DNA of 32,013 nt from a virus: the UHGV virus genome UHGV-0351843; one strand, 5' to 3'. Positions 4,560 to 18,404 of this stretch are shown here, piece by piece; position 1 is the stretch's first letter, and each line of letters opens with the position of its first letter. The position numbers and the translations under genes are program-made. The notes under the pieces were generated by a model. That model was not told the origin of the DNA. It searched no databases and saw only the letters and a list, made by a program, of their open reading frames with translations.

Positions 4560-5951
4560 TTATGCTTCATGTTGCTTTTTGAGATCGCTTCTAGCATAGC
4601 TCCACTCAATAATGTTGTCGGGTCGTTGCTGATCGAAAAGGATACGGGATTCAATACCATTACCTAAAAAGCTGGTATTCCCATCTACGTAAGAAGCTAT
4701 CCCTTGTGAACCAACACGAAGAATATTTTCTAATGGCTGCTTTGTTCTTGCTGCATCGCTAAGGAGATATAAACCCGGGTACGTTTTGTTAGCACGGTGA
4801 AAAAAAAGTTCATTGTCAAAACACATGACGATGATTATTTGTCCCGACATGAGATCGGAGAGCATTTCAGTTGGCAGATGCAAACTCATAAATGGTCGAG
4901 ACAAAGGGTCAAAGAATGAATCATTTATATTCACAACAGGGCTTTTTATACCGAGACTATCCATCCATCCATTGAAGGCAACAAAGCCCATTTCAGAATC
5001 ACGGTACATACCTAAGAACAAACATTCATCAATAGTATCAATTGCCCAATTTTTTCCTCCGCGAATAATCTCCCACATTTTAACTAAGCGGTGGGTATAA
5101 AATTCAGACGGATGATCTATCTCATTGATTTTAACTTTAGACTGATGAAAGTTGTCAAAGCCCTCGCCAGTATTAATCGCCTCCAGAACATTCATGCCAC
5201 GAATGATTTGCCTTTTTATGCGATTAAATTGCTTAACATCATTATCAGGCATATTGTTAATGAAGTTTTCTTCAAAGTGCGGACATTCTGAGATAACAGA
5301 AAATTCAGCAGCTTCATAAAGCTCATTATTCTTTTCACCTGTTTTAACTTCCACGAGCTGGAAGCCATCCAGTAGATTAAAGGTGACTAAATCTCCCACA
5401 TGAACAAATGTGCTCATGTCAGAGACAATCGCTACGGAGTGTTTGTCCTGGTTGATAAGATCGGCTGCGACCATAGAATCAATTATGTTATCTTCTGATA
5501 GATTGTCATTGCTTGCATTAATAGGTAAACGCCGCAAACTAGAGTGTTCTTCATCAAGAATGCTCCAAATTATTGAGTCAATACAACGGCGAAGAATAAG
5601 AATTTCAAATTTTTTTAAACTTATTTCATCAATACACTTTTCTTTATTTTCTTTATCCTTGTTTCGATGGTGCTCTTTTTTTTCAGTTTCCAATCTTTTT
5701 ATATCTCTCAGCCGAATAATAATCTCAAAAGATATGATTTTTTGTGAGTCTTTCCAATTTTTGAGACAGGTTTCATACTCTGCAAGAAAATCCTCATCAT
5801 TGGAAGGTAGTTCTTGAATTGGATTCCCTCCCCTTATCATTTTGGCAAGTGCATGCATTAAAGATACATAATGAGGTGATAAAATTGTCCAAAACTTCCT
5901 AAACGGTTTGTACTTTTCAAGAAAAGTTGACTCATCAGTATAATTCATCAT
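4560..5951 (-). CDS. hypothetical protein, candidate defence effector with a possible PD-(D/E)xK-like motif
   Basis: 463-aa minus-strand ORF (track 4560..5957 begins at TTG; ATG at 5949-5951 with GAGG upstream) in an AT-rich island. The central segment HVGDLVTFNLLDGFQLVEVKTGEK fits a D...(E)xK nuclease-type motif. It lies directly downstream of the AbiH-like gene on the same strand. Confidence 0.7.
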   Translation of the reverse strand: MMNYTDESTFLEKYKPFRKFWTILSPHYVSLMHALAKMIRGGNPIQELPSNDEDFLAEYETCLKNWKDSQKIISFEIIIRLRDIKRLETEKKEHHRNKDKENKEKCIDEISLKKFEILILRRCIDSIIWSILDEEHSSLRRLPINASNDNLSEDNIIDSMVAADLINQDKHSVAIVSDMSTFVHVGDLVTFNLLDGFQLVEVKTGEKNNELYEAAEFSVISECPHFEENFINNMPDNDVKQFNRIKRQIIRGMNVLEAINTGEGFDNFHQSKVKINEIDHPSEFYTHRLVKMWEIIRGGKNWAIDTIDECLFLGMYRDSEMGFVAFNGWMDSLGIKSPVVNINDSFFDPLSRPFMSLHLPTEMLSDLMSGQIIIVMCFDNELFFHRANKTYPGLYLLSDAARTKQPLENILRVGSQGIASYVDGNTSFLGNGIESRILFDQQRPDNIIEWSYARSDLKKQHEA

Positions 5952-6040
5952 AACCAAACCTCATTCCTCTTATCTATTTTCCTCAAGGTATAAAATACCA
6001 GCCTTTTTTACATAATTATAGTTATAATATGAAGTCTCAT

Positions 6041-6910
6041 TCAGATATCTTCATACTGTACGTAAGAAATATTTGAGCCTCTGATACCATAATCTTCTAA
6101 ACTGCCTGATTTTTTCTCACCTCTATATAAAGCAACTATCCATCGAGCATTTTCTTGGATGCTTTTATTTATTTCAGTAAAGTATTCACCGTCAACTTCG
6201 GCGAGCGAGTGGCCTAAAACGATGACCTCGTCCACATTTTTAAGCGATGAGAAAAAAACGTTTTCTTCTTTAATTATGTCTTCGCTGGGCTTGAATGTAT
6301 TACCGAAGTATTCGTTTATTCTGTCGTATGCCTCTGCTATTCTTGTATCTTGATCCGGTCCTATATATGGATTTAGTGACTTTTCCACCCTAAAACTATG
6401 ACCAAGTATGAGATCGTCATCGTAACTACAATTGCCGTGAATATGTATGATTTGCTCGTCTGGAACGGCATAGATCTGCTGCAAGGTATTTGTATAATTA
6501 AATGAAAAATAGATGCTTTCTCTTGGTATGGGCGGGATGTATTGCTTAGGATTGTAAGCATCGGCTATGTTAATCCCTTTAACCCAATCAGCGAATTGCT
6601 CCTTCAAACGAGCTGACAGCATTTGTGTGATTTTATTTACTTCATATTGGTAATCGTGATGATAAGCATCGCTCCAATCATCGGTATTGTATGAAGCCAA
6701 AAATATCTCACTGTTTTGAAGGATAAGCTCATAATCAATTTCACCTAAAGCATTTTCTAACTCATTCCACTCGTCCCCAGCAGGAATGTATTCTTCTATC
6801 GCGTCATATAGATCTTGGTCATTTTTTTCTACATACGACTTAAAGTGCTTGTATCCTGTTGGTAAGCCATGACGCATGTCAAATCCATTTCCTATTATGT
6901 AAAGCCTCAT
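6041..6910 (-). CDS. AbiH-like abortive-infection family protein
   Basis: ORF 6041..6961; the likely start is Met18 at 6908-6910 with AAGGGA upstream. The N-terminus MRLYIIGNGFDMRHGLPTGYKHF matches my recollection of the conserved N-terminal motif of the AbiH family; this needs HMM confirmation. AT-rich codon usage unlike the flanking phage genes. Confidence 0.65.
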   Translation of the reverse strand: MRLYIIGNGFDMRHGLPTGYKHFKSYVEKNDQDLYDAIEEYIPAGDEWNELENALGEIDYELILQNSEIFLASYNTDDWSDAYHHDYQYEVNKITQMLSARLKEQFADWVKGINIADAYNPKQYIPPIPRESIYFSFNYTNTLQQIYAVPDEQIIHIHGNCSYDDDLILGHSFRVEKSLNPYIGPDQDTRIAEAYDRINEYFGNTFKPSEDIIKEENVFFSSLKNVDEVIVLGHSLAEVDGEYFTEINKSIQENARWIVALYRGEKKSGSLEDYGIRGSNISYVQYEDI

Positions 6911-7224
6911 TGTTTTTCCCTTAGTCGAATTGTATAAAAATACTAACATGGCCTGCTCCACGTTGACTACTATCCCCTCCTTTGAGTAATGCCTTCATCA
7001 GATGTAACAACATTTGCGAGCTTCCACAGTTCGCTCAAAGCGGACTAGAAGGTTAGCTTGCGTCGGACTTGGCGTATTTAAAGAAGTGCTGGTGGAGACT
7101 GGTTGTTGTGTTCCATTTCTACAGAACAAAATCACAGAAACTATACCCAATAGTTATATTGAATCAATGATGAGACAGCCTCATATTTATCAGGACTGGT
7201 GTACGTCCAATACAGGAGGTTGTC

Positions 7225-8419: not shown

Positions 8420-9469
8420 GTGCGGGTGTTACTTCGACCTGTTCTGGTACCGGAACTCGGGCTGGTGGTCGTTAAGCCGGGCCGTGAATCCATGCCGGTA
8501 TTCCACAATACCCGGGTACTGGTGGAGCCGGAACCGAAAAGCATGCGTAATCTGCCGTCCGGGGTCGTTCCTGCCGTTCGCCAGCCGCTGGTGGAAGACA
8601 AAACATTGCTGCCGTTTTTCAGTAACGCACGGGTAATTCGTGCTGCTGGTGGTGCTGGTGCATTGTCTGACTGGCTGTTGCGCCATATTAAATCCTGCCA
8701 GTGGCCACACGGCGATTATCATCACAGCGAAACCGTTATTCACCGATATGGTACCGGCGCAATGGTGTTGTGCTGGCACTGCGACAACCAGCTGCGTGAC
8801 CAGACATCCGAATCACTCGAGCAACTTGCTCATCAAAACCTGTCAGCATGGATGATTGACGTCATCGGTCACGCAATAAGCGGTACGCAGGAGCGTGAAT
8901 TATCTCTGGCTGAATTATCCTGGTGGGCGGTCCGCAATCAGCTGGCGGACGCGCTACCGGAAGCGGTATTACGTCGCTCGCTGGGATTACCAGCGGAAAA
9001 AATCTGCTCGGTGTACCGCGAAAGCGACATCGTACCGGGAGAGCAGACCGCCACCAGCATATTGAAACAGCGCACAAAAAATCTTGCACCGTTGCCTCAC
9101 GCCCACCAGCAACAAAACCCATCACAGGAAAAGACGGTGGTAAGCATCACCGTTGATCCAGAGTCTCCGGAATCTTTCATGAAGCTGCCTAAACGTCACC
9201 GGTGGGTTAAGGAGAAATACACACGCTGGGTTAAGACACAGCCGTGTGCTTGCTGCGGTATGCCAGCCGACGATCCGCATCATCTGATTGGTCACGGGCA
9301 GGGCGGAATGGGAACCAAAGCACATGATCTCTTTGTTTTGCCTTTGTGCAGAAAGCATCACGACGAGTTGCATACGGATACCGTGGCATTTGAAGAGAAG
9401 TATGGCTCCCAACTGGAGCTGATTTTTCGATTTATCGATCGCGCGCTGGCAATTGGTGTGCTGGCCTAA
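8420..9469 (+). CDS. DUF968-family protein (YdfU-like) with C-terminal Cys/His cluster
   Basis: 349 aa, GTG start with GGAGG 5 nt upstream. The C-terminal segment [43 protein letters not shown] is as I recall the DUF968/YdfU family found upstream of Q in Qin-type prophages. Confidence 0.75.
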
Positions 9470-9486
9470 TTTTGTGGAGTAAGTTG

Positions 9487-9864
9487 ATGCGTGATATTCA
9501 GATGGTTCTTGAGCGTTGGGGGGCATGGGCGGCTAATAATCATGAAGATGTGACCTGGTCGTCCATTGCCGCCGGTTTTAAGGGATTAATTCCTTCAAAA
9601 GTAAGATCTCGTCCGCAATGCTGTGACGATGACGCGATGATCATTTGTGAATGTATGGCTCGCCTGAAAAAAAACAACAGCGATTTACATGATTTATTGG
9701 TGGACTATTATGTCGGCGGCATGACTTTTATGGCGCTTGCACGTAAGCATGGGCGATCTGATTGTTGGGTTGGCAGGATGCTCCAGAAAGCTGAGGGCGT
9801 AGTGGAGGGCATGCTGATGGTGTTGGATCTCCGATTGGAGATGGATGCTGATTGTTCGAAATAA
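9487..9864 (+). CDS. late-gene antiterminator Q (short Q family, QuuD-like)
   Basis: 125 aa from the ATG at 9487 (track ORF begins at TTG 9472). It sits directly upstream of a terminator and the lysis region, the synteny expected for Q. Confidence 0.7.
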
Positions 9865-9874
9865 TTAAAGGAAA

Positions 9875-9915
9875 AGTTGCTGTCTGATTTTCATTAGTCT
9901 AACATTTTAAATGTT
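9875..9915 (+). promoter_or_regulatory. putative late promoter pR' and Q-utilisation region
   Basis: TTGCTG, then about 17 nt, then TAACAT immediately downstream of Q. This is a positional inference. Confidence 0.3.
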
Positions 9916-9962
9916 GGAATCGCAACGTAGTTATTATCATATAACAGCTTGTTTCCTGATTT

Positions 9963-9992
9963 AGCCAGCCTCCCCAAAGGCTGGTTTTTTTC
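9963..9992 (+). terminator. rho-independent terminator (tR'-like)
   Basis: Stem ccagcct / loop ccccaa / stem aggctgg followed by tttttttt. Confidence 0.65.
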
Positions 9993-10019
9993 TAATAAGT
10001 ATCATTTCGGGTGGGGATT

Positions 10020-10108
10020 TTATTGTTTAACCCATAATAGTTCATTGACATTGAATCCCAACTTTTGAGCGGTACGCACATAGTCTGCTTTTACATTATC
10101 TGGAATAG
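10020..10108 (-). pseudogene. 3' fragment of a Blc-like lipocalin gene displaced by the IS3 insertion
   Basis: Reading the minus strand across the IS3 target duplication continues the lipocalin frame as ...IPDNVKADYVRTAQKLGFNVNELLWVKQ-stop (stop at 10020-10022). This resembles the Blc C-terminus as I recall it. Confidence 0.7.
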
Positions 10109-10164
10109 TGATCTTACCCAGCAATAGTGGACACGCAGCTAAGTGAGTAAACTCTCAGTCAGAG

Positions 10165-10473
10165 GTGACTCACATGACAAAAACAGTATCAACCAGTAAA
10201 AAACCCCGTAAACAGCATTCGTCTGAATTTCGCAGTGAAGCCCTGAAGCTTGCTGAACGCATCGGTGTTACTGCCGCAGCCCGTGAACTCAGCCTGTATG
10301 AATCACAGCTCTACAACTGGCGCAGTAAACAGCAAAATCAGCAGACGTCTTCTGAACGTGAACTGGAGATGTCTACCGAGATTGCACGTCTCAAACGCCA
10401 GCTGGCAGAACGGGATGAAGAGCTGGCTATCCTCCAAAAGGCCGCGACATACTTCGCGAAGCGCCTGAAATGA
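10165..10473 (+). CDS. insE: IS3 OrfA (transposase N-terminal HTH protein)
   Basis: The 102-aa product begins [19 protein letters not shown]... and matches my recollection of IS3 InsE. Confidence 0.9.
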
Positions 10474-11336
10474 AGTATGTCTTTATTGAAAAACATCAGG
10501 CTGAGTTCAGCATCAAAGCAATGTGCCGCGTGCTCCGGGTGGCCCGCAGCGGCTGGTATACGTGGTGTCAGCGGCGGACAAGGATAAGCACGCGTCAGCA
10601 GTTCCGCCAACACTGCGACAGCGTTGTCCTCGCGGCTTTTACCCGGTCAAAACAGCGTTACGGTGCCCCACGCCTGACGGATGAACTGCGTGATCAGGGT
10701 TACCCCTTTAACGTAAAAACCGTGGCGGCAAGCCTGCGCCGTCAGGGACTGAGGGCAAAGGCCTCCCGGAAGTTCAGCCCGGTCAGCTACCGCGCACACG
10801 GCCTGCCTGTGTCAGAAAATCTGTTGGAGCAGGATTTTTACGCCAGTGGCCCGAACCAGAAGTGGGCAGGAGACATCACGTACTTACGTACAGATGAAGG
10901 CTGGCTGTATCTGGCAGTGGTCATTGACCTGTGGTCACGTGCCGTTATTGGCTGGTCAATGTCGCCACGCATGACGGCGCAACTGGCCTGCGATGCCCTG
11001 CAGATGGCGCTGTGGCGGCGTAAGAGGCCCCGGAACGTTATCGTTCACACGGATCGTGGAGGCCAGTACTGTTCAGCAGATTATCAGGCGCAACTGAAGC
11101 GGCATAATCTGCGTGGAAGTATGAGCGCAAAAGGTTGCTGCTACGATAATGCCTGCGTGGAAAGCTTCTTTCATTCGCTGAAAGTGGAATGTATCCATGG
11201 AGAACACTTTATCAGCCGGGAAATAATGCGGGCAACGGTGTTTAATTATATCGAATGTGATTACAATCGGTGGCGGCGGCACAGTTGGTGTGGCGGCCTC
11301 AGTCCGGAACAATTTGAAAACCAGAACCTCGCTTAG
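10470..11336 (+). CDS. insF: IS3 OrfB (transposase catalytic DDE domain; expressed as an OrfAB fusion by programmed -1 frameshift)
   Basis: 288 aa overlapping orfA by 4 nt, with a DDE integrase-type core (HTDRGGQY...). Frameshift expression is established for the IS3 family; the exact slippery site was not pinpointed. Confidence 0.9.
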
Positions 11337-11366
11337 GCCTGTGTCCATATTACGTGGGTAGGATCA

Positions 11367-11805
11367 TAGTTTGGGTCCTTGCCAGAATCCATAGGTATTC
11401 TCTGTTCGGACCACTGACAAGAGCATACTTATACTCATCATCCAGTTTGATTACATTATAGCCACCATAGAAGGGGCCAAAAAACGAAACTTTCAACGCT
11501 GCAGTTTTAGTATCTCCAGTAAAGTATGCTTTACCTTCGCTCTCGCTCCATTTGTTTTTCGTTGGATCGTATCCACGGTTAAGTACGCGAATCCCTCCGT
11601 CGTTCCGTTTTTCATAAGTAGCGCTGACCTGTTCCAGACCACGTTCGAACCAGTTCTCGAGGCGAGCTATTTCATACCATTTTCCGAGGTAGCGGTTGGC
11701 GTCAAAATTTGTAATCGGCTGCACACCTTTAGGTGGTGTCGGGGCCTTACATGCTATAAGAGTGAAAGAGAGTGCAATGCCAGTCAACACAGGCCATAAC
11801 TTCAT
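11367..11805 (-). pseudogene. Blc-like outer-membrane lipocalin lipoprotein, 5' portion, interrupted by IS3
   Basis: Track ORF 11350..11805 runs 17 nt into IS3 before a stop. N-terminal lipoprotein signal MKLWPVLTGIALSFTLIAC with lipobox LIAC. Motifs FDANRYLGKWYEIARLENWFERGLE and KVSFFGPFYGGYNVI match Blc as I recall it. Confidence 0.8.
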
Positions 11806-11997
11806 AATAAATCCTGTACTTTTGATAGTTGAGAGTAAGTATGAAAGATAGATGAGTACGACCGATCACTTAAAGAACTTTCCTACTATATTAGGAATAG
11901 TCAATAACAGAAAAATTGTCAGTGATGAAGCCAGAAAGGCAATTTAGTCCGTGCACTACAAAGTTTATGTGTTAATGAATTAGTCAAGGGGGAGGAA

Positions 11998-12957
11998 ATG
12001 ATAAAAAAACCTGTGATTGGGATCAGCGGTTGTTTGGGTGGTTCTGCTGTTCGTTTTGATGGTGGTCACAAAAGAGATGACTTTTTAATGGACAAATTAG
12101 TGGAATGGGTAACATTCAGACCAGTATGTCCGGAAATGGCTATAGGGCTGCCAGTTCCGCGTCCTGCTCTACGACTTGTGCGCTCGAAGCAAGGAAATAT
12201 ACGGATGTGTTTCAGCCACGACCAGAATGAGGATGTGACAGAGAGAATGACAGAGTTTAGTCGTTCTTATATGGACAAATTAAAGGATGTATCGGGGTTT
12301 GTGGTTTGTGCTAAATCTCCCAGCTGTGGCATGGAGCGCGTGCGTGTCTATGATGAAAATGGTAATCGAGGTCGTAAAGATGGAGTGGGACTATTTACGA
12401 GCACTTTGATGGAAAAGTTTTCCTGGCTACCGGTTGAAGAGGATGGGCGATTACATGATCCAGTGCTTCGTGAGAATTTTATTGAAAGAGTTTTTGCTTT
12501 GCATGAGCTCAATCACCTTTACAAGGAGAAATTATCAAGAAGAGAGTTATTAGCTTTTCATAGTCGTTATAAGCTTCAGTTGTTGGCGCATAGCCAGGCA
12601 GGCTATAAAGATATGGGACCATTTGTGGCTGCAATACACGAGTGGGCGGACCTTGAATCATACTTTGAGGTGTATCGTGATAATCTGATGGCGATTCTCA
12701 GAAAACCAGCATCACGTAAAAATCACACGAATGTGCTGATGCATATACAGGGGTATTTTAGTAATTACTTAAGTACACGCCAGCGTAAAGAGTTGAGCGA
12801 GGTTATACTTAACTATCGCTTTGGCACATTGCCTCTTCTTGCGCCGTTGACTCTGCTGAAGCATTATCTGGGTGAGTATCCTAATGATTACTTGCTTACA
12901 CAGAATTACTTCGATCCCTATCCGGAAGAACTGGCTCTAAGACTGATGGTGAATTAA
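11998..12957 (+). CDS. YbgA-like protein (DUF523/TudS-like N-terminal domain plus DUF1722 C-terminal domain)
   Basis: The 319-aa product starts MIKKPVIGISGCLGGSAVRFDGGHK, which matches my recollection of the YbgA/DUF523 N-terminus. GGAGG lies upstream. Confidence 0.65.
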   Translation: MIKKPVIGISGCLGGSAVRFDGGHKRDDFLMDKLVEWVTFRPVCPEMAIGLPVPRPALRLVRSKQGNIRMCFSHDQNEDVTERMTEFSRSYMDKLKDVSGFVVCAKSPSCGMERVRVYDENGNRGRKDGVGLFTSTLMEKFSWLPVEEDGRLHDPVLRENFIERVFALHELNHLYKEKLSRRELLAFHSRYKLQLLAHSQAGYKDMGPFVAAIHEWADLESYFEVYRDNLMAILRKPASRKNHTNVLMHIQGYFSNYLSTRQRKELSEVILNYRFGTLPLLAPLTLLKHYLGEYPNDYLLTQNYFDPYPEELALRLMVN

Positions 12958-13363
12958 CTGTATGCGATATCATCTGAAAGTGATGAGTTCCTGTATGCAG
13001 GATATTTACAATCGTAAAAACTACGCTATGATGCTCATAGTGTCAGTTTTTATAAAAATCCTGTTCACGCTAAAGAAAACATTGAGATGCAATTTAATGT
13101 TGGTAAACATACCAGCCCCAAAAGATTTTATTCAATCTGTTTTTATATGAAGATATTTCAAGTGAATATTAAGAGCATATAATATTATTATTGCACGCAG
13201 CTATTATAATATAACAGATTAGTTTAATGATTTGTTTTTTGTGAGTTAAACACATGGTTTTATAGTTGTGATGCAATGAGATTTTCCTTATTGTTGAACT
13301 GGCGAATATTGATTTTCCACCTATACTTACCTGGTGTAACCCCAATGATATCAGGTGGATAAT

Positions 13364-14077
13364 ATGCCATACATATGTTCTATCATTTTGGTGTTGAACT
13401 CGTTTGGTGTCCGAATTGGTAAAGAAGATATTTTGTTTAAAAAAGGAAATGCTGTCCTCATTGAATACAATTTAAAAGATCTTTTTTCGTCAAATACAGA
13501 TCATCTAATGATCGTAGATGTTGAGGAGAAAACAGTTAATGATTTCTTTAAAAACTACACACTCTCACCTTTTTCTGTAAGAAGGTTTTATCCGTCATAC
13601 TTGATAGTAGAATGTGAAGATTTTTCATTGTTAAAGAACTTGGTTGCATGCTTGAATTGTGATAGCAAAACCGTGGATGTAGTTAGAAATCAAATATCAC
13701 TTGCATGTCTTGCTGTCTTATCTTCAGAGAAAATGGTGCAAAGTTTTTTGTTCGGAAGTCTTAATAGCTTAGGTTGTAAAGTTAAGGCTATTATTCACTC
13801 GGATATCTCAGCGTCATGGAGACTTTGTGATATATCTTCAAGATTATATATGAGCGAGAGTTTGTTAAAAAGAAAATTAAAAGACGAAGGATTATCGTTT
13901 AGTAAATTAATTCTTGAAGAACGAATGATGATGGCGCAAAGATTATTGATCTACAGTAACCATACTGTCGGCAAGGTGGCGGGAATATGCGGGTATGACA
14001 ATGCATCATATTTTGTAAGTGTTTTTAGAGGATATTTTGGTGTGCCTCCGCACCAATATTTATCAAGATTTTCTTAG
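13364..14077 (+). CDS. AraC-family transcriptional regulator (prophage moron)
   Basis: Track ORF starts at GTG 13355; the ATG at 13364 has AGGTGG upstream. The C-terminal AraC-type HTH is VGKVAGICGYDNASYFVSVFRGYFGVPPHQY. The gene sits in an AT-rich island. Confidence 0.75.
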   Translation: MPYICSIILVLNSFGVRIGKEDILFKKGNAVLIEYNLKDLFSSNTDHLMIVDVEEKTVNDFFKNYTLSPFSVRRFYPSYLIVECEDFSLLKNLVACLNCDSKTVDVVRNQISLACLAVLSSEKMVQSFLFGSLNSLGCKVKAIIHSDISASWRLCDISSRLYMSESLLKRKLKDEGLSFSKLILEERMMMAQRLLIYSNHTVGKVAGICGYDNASYFVSVFRGYFGVPPHQYLSRFS

Positions 14078-14267
14078 AAGATATGATGTGATGGCATTTT
14101 ATAAAGTTATTTTTTGAAGTGTAAGATTATACGATATTTTTAGCTACGCCAGAATAATTGCTGGCGTTTTTCTTTTTGAATAGATGTTCGGGCCTTACGC
14201 TAATGTAACTTCTTTCCTTCTTCGAACCAAACCGTGTACACCATCCGTTATCTGCGGAGGTGAGGCT

Positions 14268-14483
14268 ATGAAATCCATGGATAAGTTAACAACGGGCATC
14301 GCCTACAGCACCTCTGCAGGCAGTGCTGGCTACTGGTTTTTACAGTTGCTCGATAAAGTCACGCCCTCACAGTGGGCGGCAATAGGTGTATTGGGTAGTC
14401 TGGTATTTGGCATGCTGACGTATCTGACAAATCTTTATTTCAAGATTAAAGAAGACAGGCGTAAGGCTGCGAGAGGAGAGTAA
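14268..14483 (+). CDS. class II holin / pinholin (S21-like) with dual-start motif
   Basis: The product [71 protein letters not shown] has two TM segments and a Met1-Lys-Ser-Met4 dual start. It matches my recollection of the phage 21 S protein. Confidence 0.85.
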
Positions 14484-14487
14484 TCCA

Positions 14488-14795
14488 ATGACTCAAGACT
14501 ATGAACTGGTTGTGAAAGGAGTCCGTAATTTTGAGAATAAAGTTACGGTAACTGTAGCCTTACAGGACAAAGAACGCTTTGACGGTGAAATTTTTGGCCT
14601 GGATGTCGCCATGGACCGTGTTGAAGGAGCTGCGCTGGAGTTTTATGAGGCAGCAGCCAGAATGAGCGTCCGGCAAGTCTTCCTGGAAGTAGCAGAAAAA
14701 TTGTCAGAAAAAGTTGAGTCTTATCTGCAGCATCAGTACTCCTTTAAGATTGAAAATCCTGCCAATAAGCACGAGCGTCCTCATCATAAATATCT

Positions 14796-14799
<4 letters not shown>
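14488..14799 (+). CDS. hypothetical protein between holin and endolysin (YdfR-like position and size)
   Basis: 103-aa ORF tightly packed between S and R, as in Qin/DLP12-type lysis cassettes. Confidence 0.55.
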
Positions 14800-15823
<1,024 letters not shown>

Positions 15824-16186
15824 ATTAATATTAAATCGGATTATTTTTAGCGCTGAATGTGAAATTTAAATAAAAAGGACTCTTCCATGAGTCAAAATCC
15901 TTGAAATCTTAAGGGTAAGATAAAAGGTCATTAGACAGAATGACACGTTTTATTAATAAATAAAGCTATTGTTTCATTCGTGTGTTTTTCTTTACAAAAG
16001 TAATCCTTGCTATGGTTGGTTAATCATGCGTTAATGGTGTTCTGGTTTGTTACAAAATTATCTGAAGCAGTCATTGTTATAATTTTATTATTTGTACCTC
16101 TTGAGATTTCCTTGTTGGTTTTTCTCTCTGATATTTTTTTTCGGACCATTCTGCCCAAGGGCTAACTTCTTCAAAAGGTAATAATG

Positions 16187-16399
16187 ATGTCTAACAAAAT
16201 GACTGGTTTAGTGAAATGGTTTAACCCTGAAAAAGGTTTTGGTTTCATCACGCCGAAAGATGGTAGCAAAGATGTGTTTGTGCATTTCTCAGCTATTCAG
16301 AGCAACGATTTCAAAACGTTAACTGAGAATCAGGAAGTCGAATTTGGTATTGAGAACGGACCTAAAGGCCCTGCAGCTGTTCATGTAGTGGCACTTTGA
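16187..16399 (+). CDS. cspI: cold-shock protein, CspA family
   Basis: The 70-aa product [70 protein letters not shown] has RNP1/RNP2-like motifs (KGFGFI, VFVHF). It is preceded by a long AT-rich leader. Confidence 0.9.
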
Positions 16400-16603
16400 G
16401 GTAGAAAATATTACAAACCATATTCACTTTAGATGCCCGTGTTGCCATGGTTCTCAGTATAGAACATCATCTTTTGATGTTTCTGACAGAAATCCTTTCG
16501 GGGCAAAATGTATCTTTTGTAAATCAATGATGATTACATTTGATAATATTTCACAATACTTAAATGTTAGCCATCTGTCGTTAGATTTAAGAAAGTGAAA
16601 ATG

Positions 16604-16628
16604 AAGGCTCCTTCGGGAGCTTTTTTGC
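16604..16628 (+). terminator. rho-independent terminator
   Basis: ggctcc / ttcg / ggagc followed by tttttt. Confidence 0.5.
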
Positions 16629-16670
16629 TTAGTGTCTAGTCGATGGATACTCACATATTACGGTAACATT

Positions 16671-16901
16671 ATGAAAAAAATAATAGTTTTTTTTAACTCT
16701 GAACCAGCAATGGTAGTGCCAGTGATGACCGGAGTTAACACCATCATGCGTGAATATCCAAATGGCGAAACAACACACCTCACTGTAATGGCTGCAGGGT
16801 TTCCATCTCTGACCGGAGATCATAAAGTCATTTATGTAGCAGCGGATCGACATGTAACTTCAGAAGAAATTCTGGAAGCAGCAATGAGACTCTTGAATTG
16901 A
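16671..16901 (+). CDS. small hypothetical protein (YnfN-like position)
   Basis: Start MKKIIVFFNSEPAMVVP at ATG 16671 inside track ORF 16632..16901. It sits between csp and gns genes, as in Qin. Confidence 0.5.
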   Translation: MKKIIVFFNSEPAMVVPVMTGVNTIMREYPNGETTHLTVMAAGFPSLTGDHKVIYVAADRHVTSEEILEAAMRLLN

Positions 16902-17070
16902 TTTGATTCTAATGCATTGATAATAAATGATAATCATCTTTATCTGTTTGTGTGAAATTTAGACCGTCGTATGTTGATTATTGCGATGTTTCATCTTATC
17001 TTTTATACGTTTGCTCCATATAATTGACACTACTGTGTACCAGGACAGTCATAACAGACTAAAAGAGGAA

Positions 17071-17247
17071 ATGATGAACATTGAAGAGTTAAAAACAAAA
17101 ACAGAAGCAGATATTTCTGAATATATAACAAAAAAAATCATTGAGCTTAAGAAAAAGACCGGGAAAGAAGTTACCAGTATCCAGTTTACTGCACGGGAAA
17201 AAATGACTGGTCTTGAAAGCTATGATATCAAGATTGATTTAATCTAG
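17071..17247 (+). CDS. GnsA/GnsB-family protein
   Basis: Product MMNIEELKTKTEADISEYITKKIIELKKKTGKEVTSIQFTAREKMTGLESYDIKIDLI with AGAGGA upstream; it matches the Gns family as I recall it. Track ORF 16981..17247 has a spurious N-terminal extension. Confidence 0.7.
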   Translation: MMNIEELKTKTEADISEYITKKIIELKKKTGKEVTSIQFTAREKMTGLESYDIKIDLI

Positions 17248-17542
17248 CATGTTTATAGTATTAGCATCAATTTCTCATCAGATGCTATTCAACAATACAA
17301 ATTACCCATAAACCTCGTTTTTACGGGGTTTTGTTATATTTAAACATTACCGAATAGATATAAATCTCGATTGTCGATGGTATTGGTTGTGTGACAATAC
17401 CTAGTCTTTCCGGTATGCCTGAAGAGAATACAAACGACAGATTATGTAAGGGAAACGCGCTGAAACTTTCACTCTTTCATGCTGAGTGATTTGACGTTAT
17501 ATTTTTAGCCGCAAGTGAAGAGCAAACGAATGGAGCGACAAA

Positions 17543-17749
17543 ATGCATAAAGATCAATACATTGATGCCCCCTCCCAGGAGCAGGTTCGTGTAAAAACTA
17601 TGCTTAATAGCACCATTTCGATGGGTTACCCGGATGTTGTAATTGCATGTATAGAACATCAAGTATCTCTGGAAGCATTCAGGGCAATTGAGGCCGCGTT
17701 AGTAAAGCACGATAAGAATACGAAGGATTATTCCCTGGTGGTTGACTGA
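17543..17749 (+). CDS. hypothetical small protein
   Basis: 68-aa ORF with a plausible ATG; no family recognised. Confidence 0.4.
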
Positions 17750-17999
17750 TCACCATAACTGCTAACCATTCTGACCATTTCACAAGTGACAGAGTCAATA
17801 TCGTATTCTGTCACTGTCAGGCTAATACAGTACTGCAATTCAACTACAGCAATGCCTCGTATTTAGGTGAATTTACAATATCGTTCTATTCGGATACCAA
17901 CTACATTTCTGAAGATAAGGCATTTATGGCTCACATATTGGTCCCTCACGCTCGCCAGTTCTGTGCGGGGAGGGAGGGAAGGTCAAGAAACCGGGATGT

Positions 18000-18194
18000 T
18001 CATCCATCATCACTCTGGATTGATGTATATGCTCTCTTTTCTGACGTTAGTCTCCGGCGGCAGGCTTCAATGACCCAGGCTGAGAAATTCCCGGACCCTT
18101 TTTGATCAAGAGCGATGTTAATTTGTTCAATCATTTGGTTAGGAAAGCGGATGTTGCGGGTTGTTGTTCTGCGGGTTCTGTTCTTCGTTGACAT
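18000..18194 (-). CDS. small DNA-binding protein upstream of cos (YlcI/YnfO-like, possibly ribbon-helix-helix)
   Basis: 64-aa minus-strand ORF with a basic N-terminus (MSTKNRTRRTTTRNIRFPNQMIEQINIALDQKG). The position just before cos is typical of this family; assignment is from memory. Confidence 0.5.
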   Translation of the reverse strand: MSTKNRTRRTTTRNIRFPNQMIEQINIALDQKGSGNFSAWVIEACRRRLTSEKRAYTSIQSDDG

Positions 18195-18392
18195 GAGGTT
18201 GCCCTGTATTCAGTGTCGCTGATTTGTATTGTCTGAAGTTGTTTTTACGTTAAGTTGATGCAGATCAATTAATACGATACCTGCGTCATAATTGATTATT
18301 TGACGTGGTTTGATGGCGTAGATGCACGTTGTGACATGTAGATGATAATTATTATCATTTTGCGGGTCCTTTCCGGCGATCCGACAGGTTAC

Positions 18393-18404
18393 GGGGCGGC
18401 GACC
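18393..18404. other. cos site: cosN 12-nt cohesive-end sequence GGGCGGCGACCT; cosQ upstream and cosB downstream
   Basis: ...gatccgacaggttacg|gggcggcgacct|ctcgggttttcgctatttatgaaaattttccgg... matches the lambda right-end/left-end junction as I recall it, about 190 bp upstream of nu1. Confidence 0.8.

Follow-up and report, generated by a model that had tools for sequence, protein, structure and literature searches.

In the DLP12 prophage of Escherichia coli K-12 the cargo gene nmpC, located between the antiterminator gene Q and the lysis genes, is interrupted by the insertion sequence (IS) IS5. Another cargo gene, blc, which codes for a lipocalin, is a moron found in more than 50%, though not all, of 19 lambda-like phages (Mathieu et al. 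2020, PMC6969025). A paper of 2023 states that IS911 and IS150 are the only members of the IS3 family with a known insertion preference, and that its own search for a pattern at IS3 sites failed (PMC10379815). Here we analyse UHGV virus genome UHGV-0351843, a stretch of 32,013 nucleotides (the window, by which we mean the whole of this stretch), in which a complete IS3 element splits a gene for a Blc-like lipocalin on the minus strand. We are highly confident that this is a fresh insertion of IS3 in a known Blc-like cargo gene of a Qin-type prophage, and one of many independent insertions there. Compared with nmpC in DLP12, the window again has outer-membrane cargo between Q and the lysis genes, presumably inactivated by an IS, while the IS, the cargo gene and the prophage are all different. 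The likeness to the blc moron of lambda-like coliphages goes further. Twelve coliphage genomes encode a lipocalin 96-97% identical to that of the window (annotated 'Lipocalin Blc' in 11 of the 12), and in phage 1H12 (NC_049947.1) the order is the same: Q, lipocalin on the opposite strand, YbgA, an open reading frame (ORF) of ~730 nt and holin. What sets the window apart from these phages is that its gene is interrupted by IS3 and that its backbone, of the Qin type, has DUF968 and differs in the early region.

The split gene and the element within it comprise the following parts:

10020..10105, minus strand: 3' part of the lipocalin gene (last 28 codons, IPDNVKADYVRTAQKLGFNVNELLWVKQ, and the stop), aligning to the C-terminal helix/last strand region of Blc
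10106..10108: left copy of the TAG target-site duplication (read from the sequence and by script)
10109..11366, plus strand (that of the transposase genes): complete IS3 element, 1258 bp, boundaries read from the sequence
10109..10147, plus strand: IS3 left terminal inverted repeat, imperfect, ~39 bp, starting TGATCTTACCCA (two ends aligned)
10174..10473, plus strand: IS3 orfA, helix-turn-helix (HTH) protein (ORF list and Pfam HTH_Tnp_1)
10470..11336, plus strand: IS3 orfB, DDE integrase-like catalytic domain (Pfam rve 2e-28, rve_2 and HTH_21, full length)
11328..11366, plus strand: IS3 right terminal inverted repeat, ending TGGGTAGGATCA (two ends aligned)
11367..11369: right copy of the TAG target-site duplication (read from the sequence and by script)
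11370..11805, minus strand: 5' part of the lipocalin gene (codons 1 to ~146, with the signal peptide, the lipobox LIAC with Cys19 and most of the beta-barrel)

The lipocalin frame opens with the ATG at 11805 and is closed within IS3 by a stop at 11350-11352; its product of 151 aa ends ...ARTQT-MILPT, the final five residues being encoded by the IS. Deletion of 10109-11369 in silico results in an ORF of 174 aa, ending ...ARTQTIPDNVKADYVRTAQKLGFNVNELLWVKQ before the stop, and this restored protein is identical at 174 of 174 positions to WP_000780584.1, which BLR(DE3) encodes in its Qin prophage and which is annotated 'lipocalin family protein'. It matches Pfam Lipocalin_2 over profile positions 2-146 of 146 (E 7.5e-43; 146.4 bits versus a cut-off of 24), and its residues 16-174 align to solved structures of E. 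coli Blc (3mbt, E 8e-67; 1qwd, E 2e-65). The alignment reaches the last residue, and an eight-stranded barrel followed by a C-terminal helix is implied by it. At the N-terminus, MKLWPVLTGIALSFTLIAC, a lipobox L-I-A-C can be read by eye, with Cys19 and then Lys. The restored protein is a full-length Blc relative and a predicted lipoprotein. With E. coli Blc (PDB 1qwd, 2aco, 3mbt) it shares the length, the lipobox cysteine, the lipocalin fold family and the motifs GxWYEIA and YLWIL(S/A)RT, in an end-to-end alignment with E 1e-65 to 1e-67; many aligned residues differ, however, as in a diverged prophage paralogue, and the gene lies in the Q-to-lysis cargo slot and not at the chromosomal blc locus. 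An initial annotation, made from the letters of the window, had described a Blc-like lipocalin lipoprotein that stops five codons into IS3 and regains its frame once IS3 and one TAG are removed. Both the reading of the frame and the likeness to lipocalins over the full length are borne out.

The 3-bp repeat alone would be weak evidence of transposition; the insertion is proven because the exact empty site exists. A 228-nt sequence, made of 114 nt from each side with a single TAG, is found at 100% identity in many E. coli genomes, those of E. coli B and C among them, and 1,092 of 5,426 complete E. coli genomes contain most of it. An uninterrupted allele, which the initial annotation had suggested looking for, was thus found both in these genomes and in the near-identical prophage of strain 11PC.

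The element itself opens with TGATCTTACCCAGC and closes with GGGTAGGATCA, and its ends form an imperfect inverted repeat, TGATC...GATCA, which we take to extend over 39 bp, its terminal matches being the part checked in the window. The ATG of orfA at 10174 is the start used by RefSeq for identical IS3 copies, and its stop lies at 10473; orfB overlaps orfA in the -1 frame, and the motif AAAAG, read from the sequence at 10434-10438, is presumably the site of the -1 frameshift. Length and ends, overlapping ORFs and the 3-bp target duplication place the element in the IS3 family, and together with the AAAAG motif they are all shared with IS3 of E. coli (IS3 family, IS3 group), so that the window element is IS3 itself. 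Over its 1258 bp it agrees at every base (100% identity) with copies from strains such as E24377A and 11PC, for which RefSeq gives an intact IS3 transposase and a programmed frameshift; from the commoner WP_085947771-type variant it differs by 5 substitutions. The window holds this one copy only, in the same orientation as late transcription. The flanking direct repeat is exactly 3 bp, and a script found no extension to 4-11 bp. The complete element and the two TAG copies were found on re-reading at precisely the positions first assigned to them.

Queries spanning either IS3 junction returned no single-piece match in the 5,426 complete E. coli genomes, and a 32-mer of the left junction was absent from the species-representative genomes and metagenome contigs searched. 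The one hit, in IMG/VR contig L019 (see below), is another allele and has another variant of IS3. IS elements are classic sites of mis-assembly, and with the exact junction absent from all complete genomes searched, one might suppose that a repeat-induced mis-join has put IS3 between the halves of an intact gene. We consider this extremely improbable: a perfect 3-bp duplication, with both IS ends precisely abutting the halves of one site, is the signature of real transposition, and the same architecture recurs at the same TAG in two other independent sequences as well as at other sites in the lipocalin gene.

The insertion is very recent and strain-specific, because the halves are unmutated, the gene is intact in a near-identical prophage of 11PC, the IS copy is identical to copies at other places and the junction is absent from the genomes searched. 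Neither half of the gene has any substitution compared with the intact allele. The first 10,108 bases of the window are ~100% identical to 11PC (at most 1 mismatch), and the remainder shows 2 differences in 5.6 kb and 0 in 3.6 kb; overall the 11PC prophage, where the lipocalin gene is intact, has ~3 base differences in 19 kb from the window. Base differences are the sole divergence across the compared remainder, other than a separate IS in 11PC, an IS3-family element of ~1.33 kb (L002, 35177-36506) at the window equivalent of ~16937 (16932-16937). Structural genes beyond window position ~20570 are lost in 11PC, the window prophage being the more complete of the two. The earlier description of a recent gene-disrupting insertion, not an ancient scar, agrees with all of these comparisons.

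On our account, an active IS3 copy would have transposed into lipocalin codon 146/147 by copy-out/paste-in via a circular intermediate, catalysed by the OrfAB transposase made by frameshifting, and would have duplicated the trinucleotide TAG in the process. This route is the one of the IS3 family, and the identical copies in related genomes are consistent with it. The resulting product of 151 aa would keep residues 1-146, lose the last 28 and gain the five IS-encoded ones. In the Blc alignment the lost residues are the C-terminal segment, the signal peptide and most of the barrel being kept, and the truncated lipocalin is most probably non-functional. It appears most likely that a weak site preference of IS3 acts here on dispensable prophage DNA, rather than that there is selection against the lipocalin.

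Several points weigh against parts of this account. A 146-residue barrel without its C-terminal helix might keep some activity; RefSeq still calls blc in strains with IS3 at the extreme 3' or 5' end of the gene; and the lipocalin gene is the densest segment of the zone from Q to the AraC-like gene (see below), so that a local target effect, or selection, may be at work. No evidence contradicts the insertion itself. In strain 300490 (L004) IS3 lies at CAT 10045, at the extreme 3' end of the lipocalin gene, and in strain PK8276 (L010) at CAA 11777, at the extreme 5' end. ORFs of 172 and 170 codons, respectively, are left and are annotated by RefSeq as intact 'blc', so that some interrupted alleles are hidden in annotations.

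By sequence similarity, the window is a Qin-type lambdoid prophage of E. coli, a near-twin of the 11PC prophage, and in its closest relatives integration is at the ydfJ/rspB site (11PC annotation, Pfam scans). The surroundings of the split gene are as follows:

8420-9469, plus strand: ydfU (DUF968)
9472..9864, plus strand: antiterminator Q gene, left border of the cargo slot (Pfam Phage_antitermQ 8e-51; RefSeq annotation of the identical 11PC gene)
9963..9996, plus strand: terminator-like hairpin and T-run just downstream of Q, from a consensus scan, putatively acting in place of lambda tR'
10020-11805, minus strand: lipocalin gene (split)
11998..12957, plus strand: YbgA-type gene, 2-thiouracil desulfurase domain and DUF1722 (Pfam; annotation in 11PC and phage 1H12)
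13355..14077, plus strand: AraC-family HTH gene, third member of the cassette (Pfam HTH_18, HTH_AraC)
14184..14483, plus strand: holin gene, essD type, right border of the cargo slot (Pfam Phage_holin_2_1 6e-34)
14488-14799, plus strand: DUF1327 gene
14796-15329, plus strand: lysozyme gene

The lipocalin gene lies between Q and holin, in the same order as in 11PC, BLR(DE3) and phage 1H12, and on the strand opposite to late transcription. The YbgA-type gene is transcribed divergently from it; the 192-bp intergenic region between them is AT-rich (34% GC), and a consensus scan of these 192 bp found no strong promoter. Together with the AraC-like gene the two form a conserved three-gene cassette, which is present also in the Q-holin slot of the functional phage 1H12. 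The location between Q and holin and the presence/absence variation among related phages are those of a moron; the lipocalin site is present in 1,130 of 5,426 genomes as against 2,146 for the nearby cspI region. Since the same cassette occurs in functional coliphages and the gene has been published as a moron (PMC6969025), blc cargo is not new. The initial annotation had placed the gene in the moron slot between Q and lysis that carries virulence cargo in other lambdoid phages. The slot is as described, with Q at 9472-9864, holin at 14184-14483 and the same position in 1H12, but virulence was drawn from analogy only and nothing that we found supports such a role. In the early region, two large ORFs on the minus strand (4560-6961), annotated in 11PC as a hypothetical protein (463 aa) and an AbiH-family abortive-infection protein, look like phage-defence cargo and occur in only ~61 genomes with this early region.

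In addition to finding no single-piece match, the junction queries returned two-piece matches in which IS3 copies lie nearby at other positions. To map them we used 'ruler' queries, in which a fixed marker is combined with one end of IS3 and with a random, inert pad, so that pieces lying farther apart are still joined and the span of a hit gives the position of the insertion. Rulers with a marker and both IS ends were abandoned, as unrelated inverted IS3 pairs covered as many query letters; one-end queries replaced them, with a longer marker for the control. The survey covers IS3 only, which has 18,812 places in the collection of 5,426 complete E. coli genomes, and its counts are lower bounds from the matches listed, with spans read by hand.

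With one-end rulers in both orientations, more than 120 of the ~1,130 genomes bearing the locus have an IS3 within ~2.7 kb of the lipocalin/ybgA intergenic marker. From ydfU to the DUF1327 gene (the equivalent of window positions 9400-14800) there are at least 45 distinct IS3 positions, where ~4 places would be expected in the zone if the 18,812 were independent and uniformly spread. The lipocalin gene has at least 16 distinct sites in 525 bp, in both orientations. Outside this gene, too, insertions are frequent, both around cspI and in Q, ybgA, the AraC-like and holin genes and the intergenic DNA. When 16 loci were fetched and their junctions located exactly, 14 proved to have perfect 3-bp duplications inside the lipocalin gene; with the window, these occupy 13 different positions, again in both orientations, and 12 of the 15 fall in the 5' half of the gene. 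The remaining two loci have foreign DNA on one side and no duplication, which points to IS-mediated deletions.

The very TAG of the window was hit elsewhere. In ECCTRSRTH03, IS3 is inverted at exactly this trinucleotide, in a variant with 5 substitutions and in an allele 94-97% identical; in an IMG/VR contig (L019, IMGVR_UViG_3300013942_000118) it is at the same TAG and in the same orientation, differs at 3 of 365 IS bases and has a diverged background with a mosaic flank. We count these as three independent hits on one TAG, since the window flanks are identical to intact alleles and the other two backgrounds differ. The CCA at 11634-11636 was hit in two other strains, once in each orientation. 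Were the 15 insertions spread uniformly over the 525 bp, two or more such coincidences of position would have P = 0.015.

Many of the IS3 copies found in these prophages border on unrelated DNA at one end and show no target duplication: ~40-50% of them overall (L005, L015, L020-L022, L029), and 18 of 35 full-length copies in the IMG/VR loci. Such copies point to IS3-mediated adjacent deletions or to recombination between copies. E. coli B and C share an IS3 in ybgA (~window position 12148) without a target duplication, and the downstream phage genes are deleted. Local hopping from this ancestral copy was considered as a general source of the insertions and rejected, by inspection rather than by a formal test: most strains with a lipocalin insertion have an intact ybgA and no second IS3 nearby.

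Recurrent hits on one gene could be parallel adaptive knock-outs, if losing the phage lipocalin, or altered expression of its neighbours by IS3, benefits the lysogen. Besides the number of sites within 525 bp in both orientations, two features of the distribution speak for this. In the zone reachable in both orientations, from Q to the AraC-like gene, the lipocalin gene makes up 15% of the DNA and has 16 of the 40 distinct sites (P ~1e-4, among the matches listed and with spans read by hand), and the 5' half, where most of the mapped insertions lie, is the region in which inactivation would be fullest. The control, however, tells otherwise. A ruler on the marker 16150-16749 (cspI-ymcF-ynfN), 4-6 kb to the right of the lipocalin gene and carried by 2,130 genomes, gave at least 60 matches with ~35 different spans among the matches listed. 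The high density of IS3 thus belongs to the whole accessory and late half of Qin-type prophages rather than to the lipocalin gene in particular. This speaks against selection specific to that gene, and we rejected a lipocalin-specific hot spot or selection as the main explanation once the control had proved similarly rich. Q, ybgA, the AraC-like and holin genes and the intergenic DNA have IS3 at a similar frequency; the site is intact in ~1,090 genomes and the gene is retained by functional phages; and the case for knock-outs comes from a survey of IS3. We therefore regard positive selection as unlikely, and loss of the lipocalin need not be selected. Around the control marker, the part of the window at 15900-18400 (cspI, ymcF, ynfN, gnsB) consists of small genes, all ORFs being shorter than 90 aa, and has many IS3 insertions.

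The exactly mapped junctions also made it possible to look at target sequence. When the 15 lipocalin insertions were oriented relative to IS3, a G was found 3 nt before the duplication in 13 and a C 3 nt after it in 10, with positions between often A or T, a pattern that can be written as 5'-G-W-N-[NNN]-N-W-C-3'. Counted by half-sites, of which 25% are expected to match, the 13 unique lipocalin sites give 20 of 26, six new sites in Q and the cspI region 8 of 12, and 15 unique sites from IMG/VR contigs 19 of 30. The pooled validation set of 21 independent sites has P = 9e-8 against the 25% expectation, and all 34 unique sites (loci L003-L029, L030-L108) give 47 of 68. The window site, GAA[TAG]TTT, matches one half of the motif. 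A weak palindromic preference of IS3 for 5'-GNN[NNN]NNC-3', plausible and modest in size, thus held in two independent samples. Weakly palindromic target preferences are common among DDE transposases. In our search of the literature we came upon nothing specific on a Qin hot zone for IS3 or on a consensus of its targets, and this preference may be unreported so far. Targeting in the style of IS911, where the target resembles the ends of the element, was set aside: inspection by eye gave only a 5-nt match, ACCCA, near the TAG site.

The question then is whether, selection aside, this part of Qin-type prophages has a physical property that draws in the IS3 transpososome. Candidate properties are the AT-rich cargo DNA, binding of nucleoid proteins, divergent or convergent transcription and a chromosomal position near the terminus. 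A true regional hot spot would account for the excess of insertions near the marker over the uniform expectation, for the repeated use of the TAG and of CCA 11636, and it would accord with the sequence preference of IS3. The motif itself is far too frequent to explain the regional enrichment or to define a region, however, and dispensable prophage DNA also gathers IS elements by tolerance, which gives the same picture here as targeting would. In addition, the control region belongs to the same prophage family, and the counts come from the matches listed, with spans read by hand. A regional hot spot is therefore possible, and we hold it to be somewhat doubtful. For the insertion in the window we keep to a weak preference acting on DNA that the host can spare as the likeliest account.

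The event is real but ordinary: an IS3 insertion in a known phage cargo gene, one of dozens in this stretch of prophage. It is also less special than the initial annotation implied, given that the blc moron is published and that across E. coli IS3 is found very commonly in this gene and those next to it. As phage-borne blc cargo is known and IS insertions in prophage cargo are routine, the single event is biologically minor. For annotation it means that the two fragments should be read as one lipocalin pseudogene interrupted by IS3 and not as two small ORFs, and that the prophage should be recognised as almost a twin of the one in strain 11PC, also of the Qin type.

The population view is more interesting. 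The lipocalin gene and its neighbours form a natural array of IS3 targets, in which dozens of independent insertions can be mapped precisely. This array could supply markers for strain typing and, by exposing the sequence preference of the element, could also help to predict IS3 sites in engineered strains. It shows, moreover, how one IS erodes a widespread prophage by disruption and adjacent deletions. We tentatively propose, at somewhat short of even confidence, that IS3 prefers a weak 9-bp palindrome, strongly over-populates the accessory and late half of Qin-type prophages, hits the same trinucleotides repeatedly and often triggers adjacent deletions, and that it would in this way be a main agent of decay in this prophage family.

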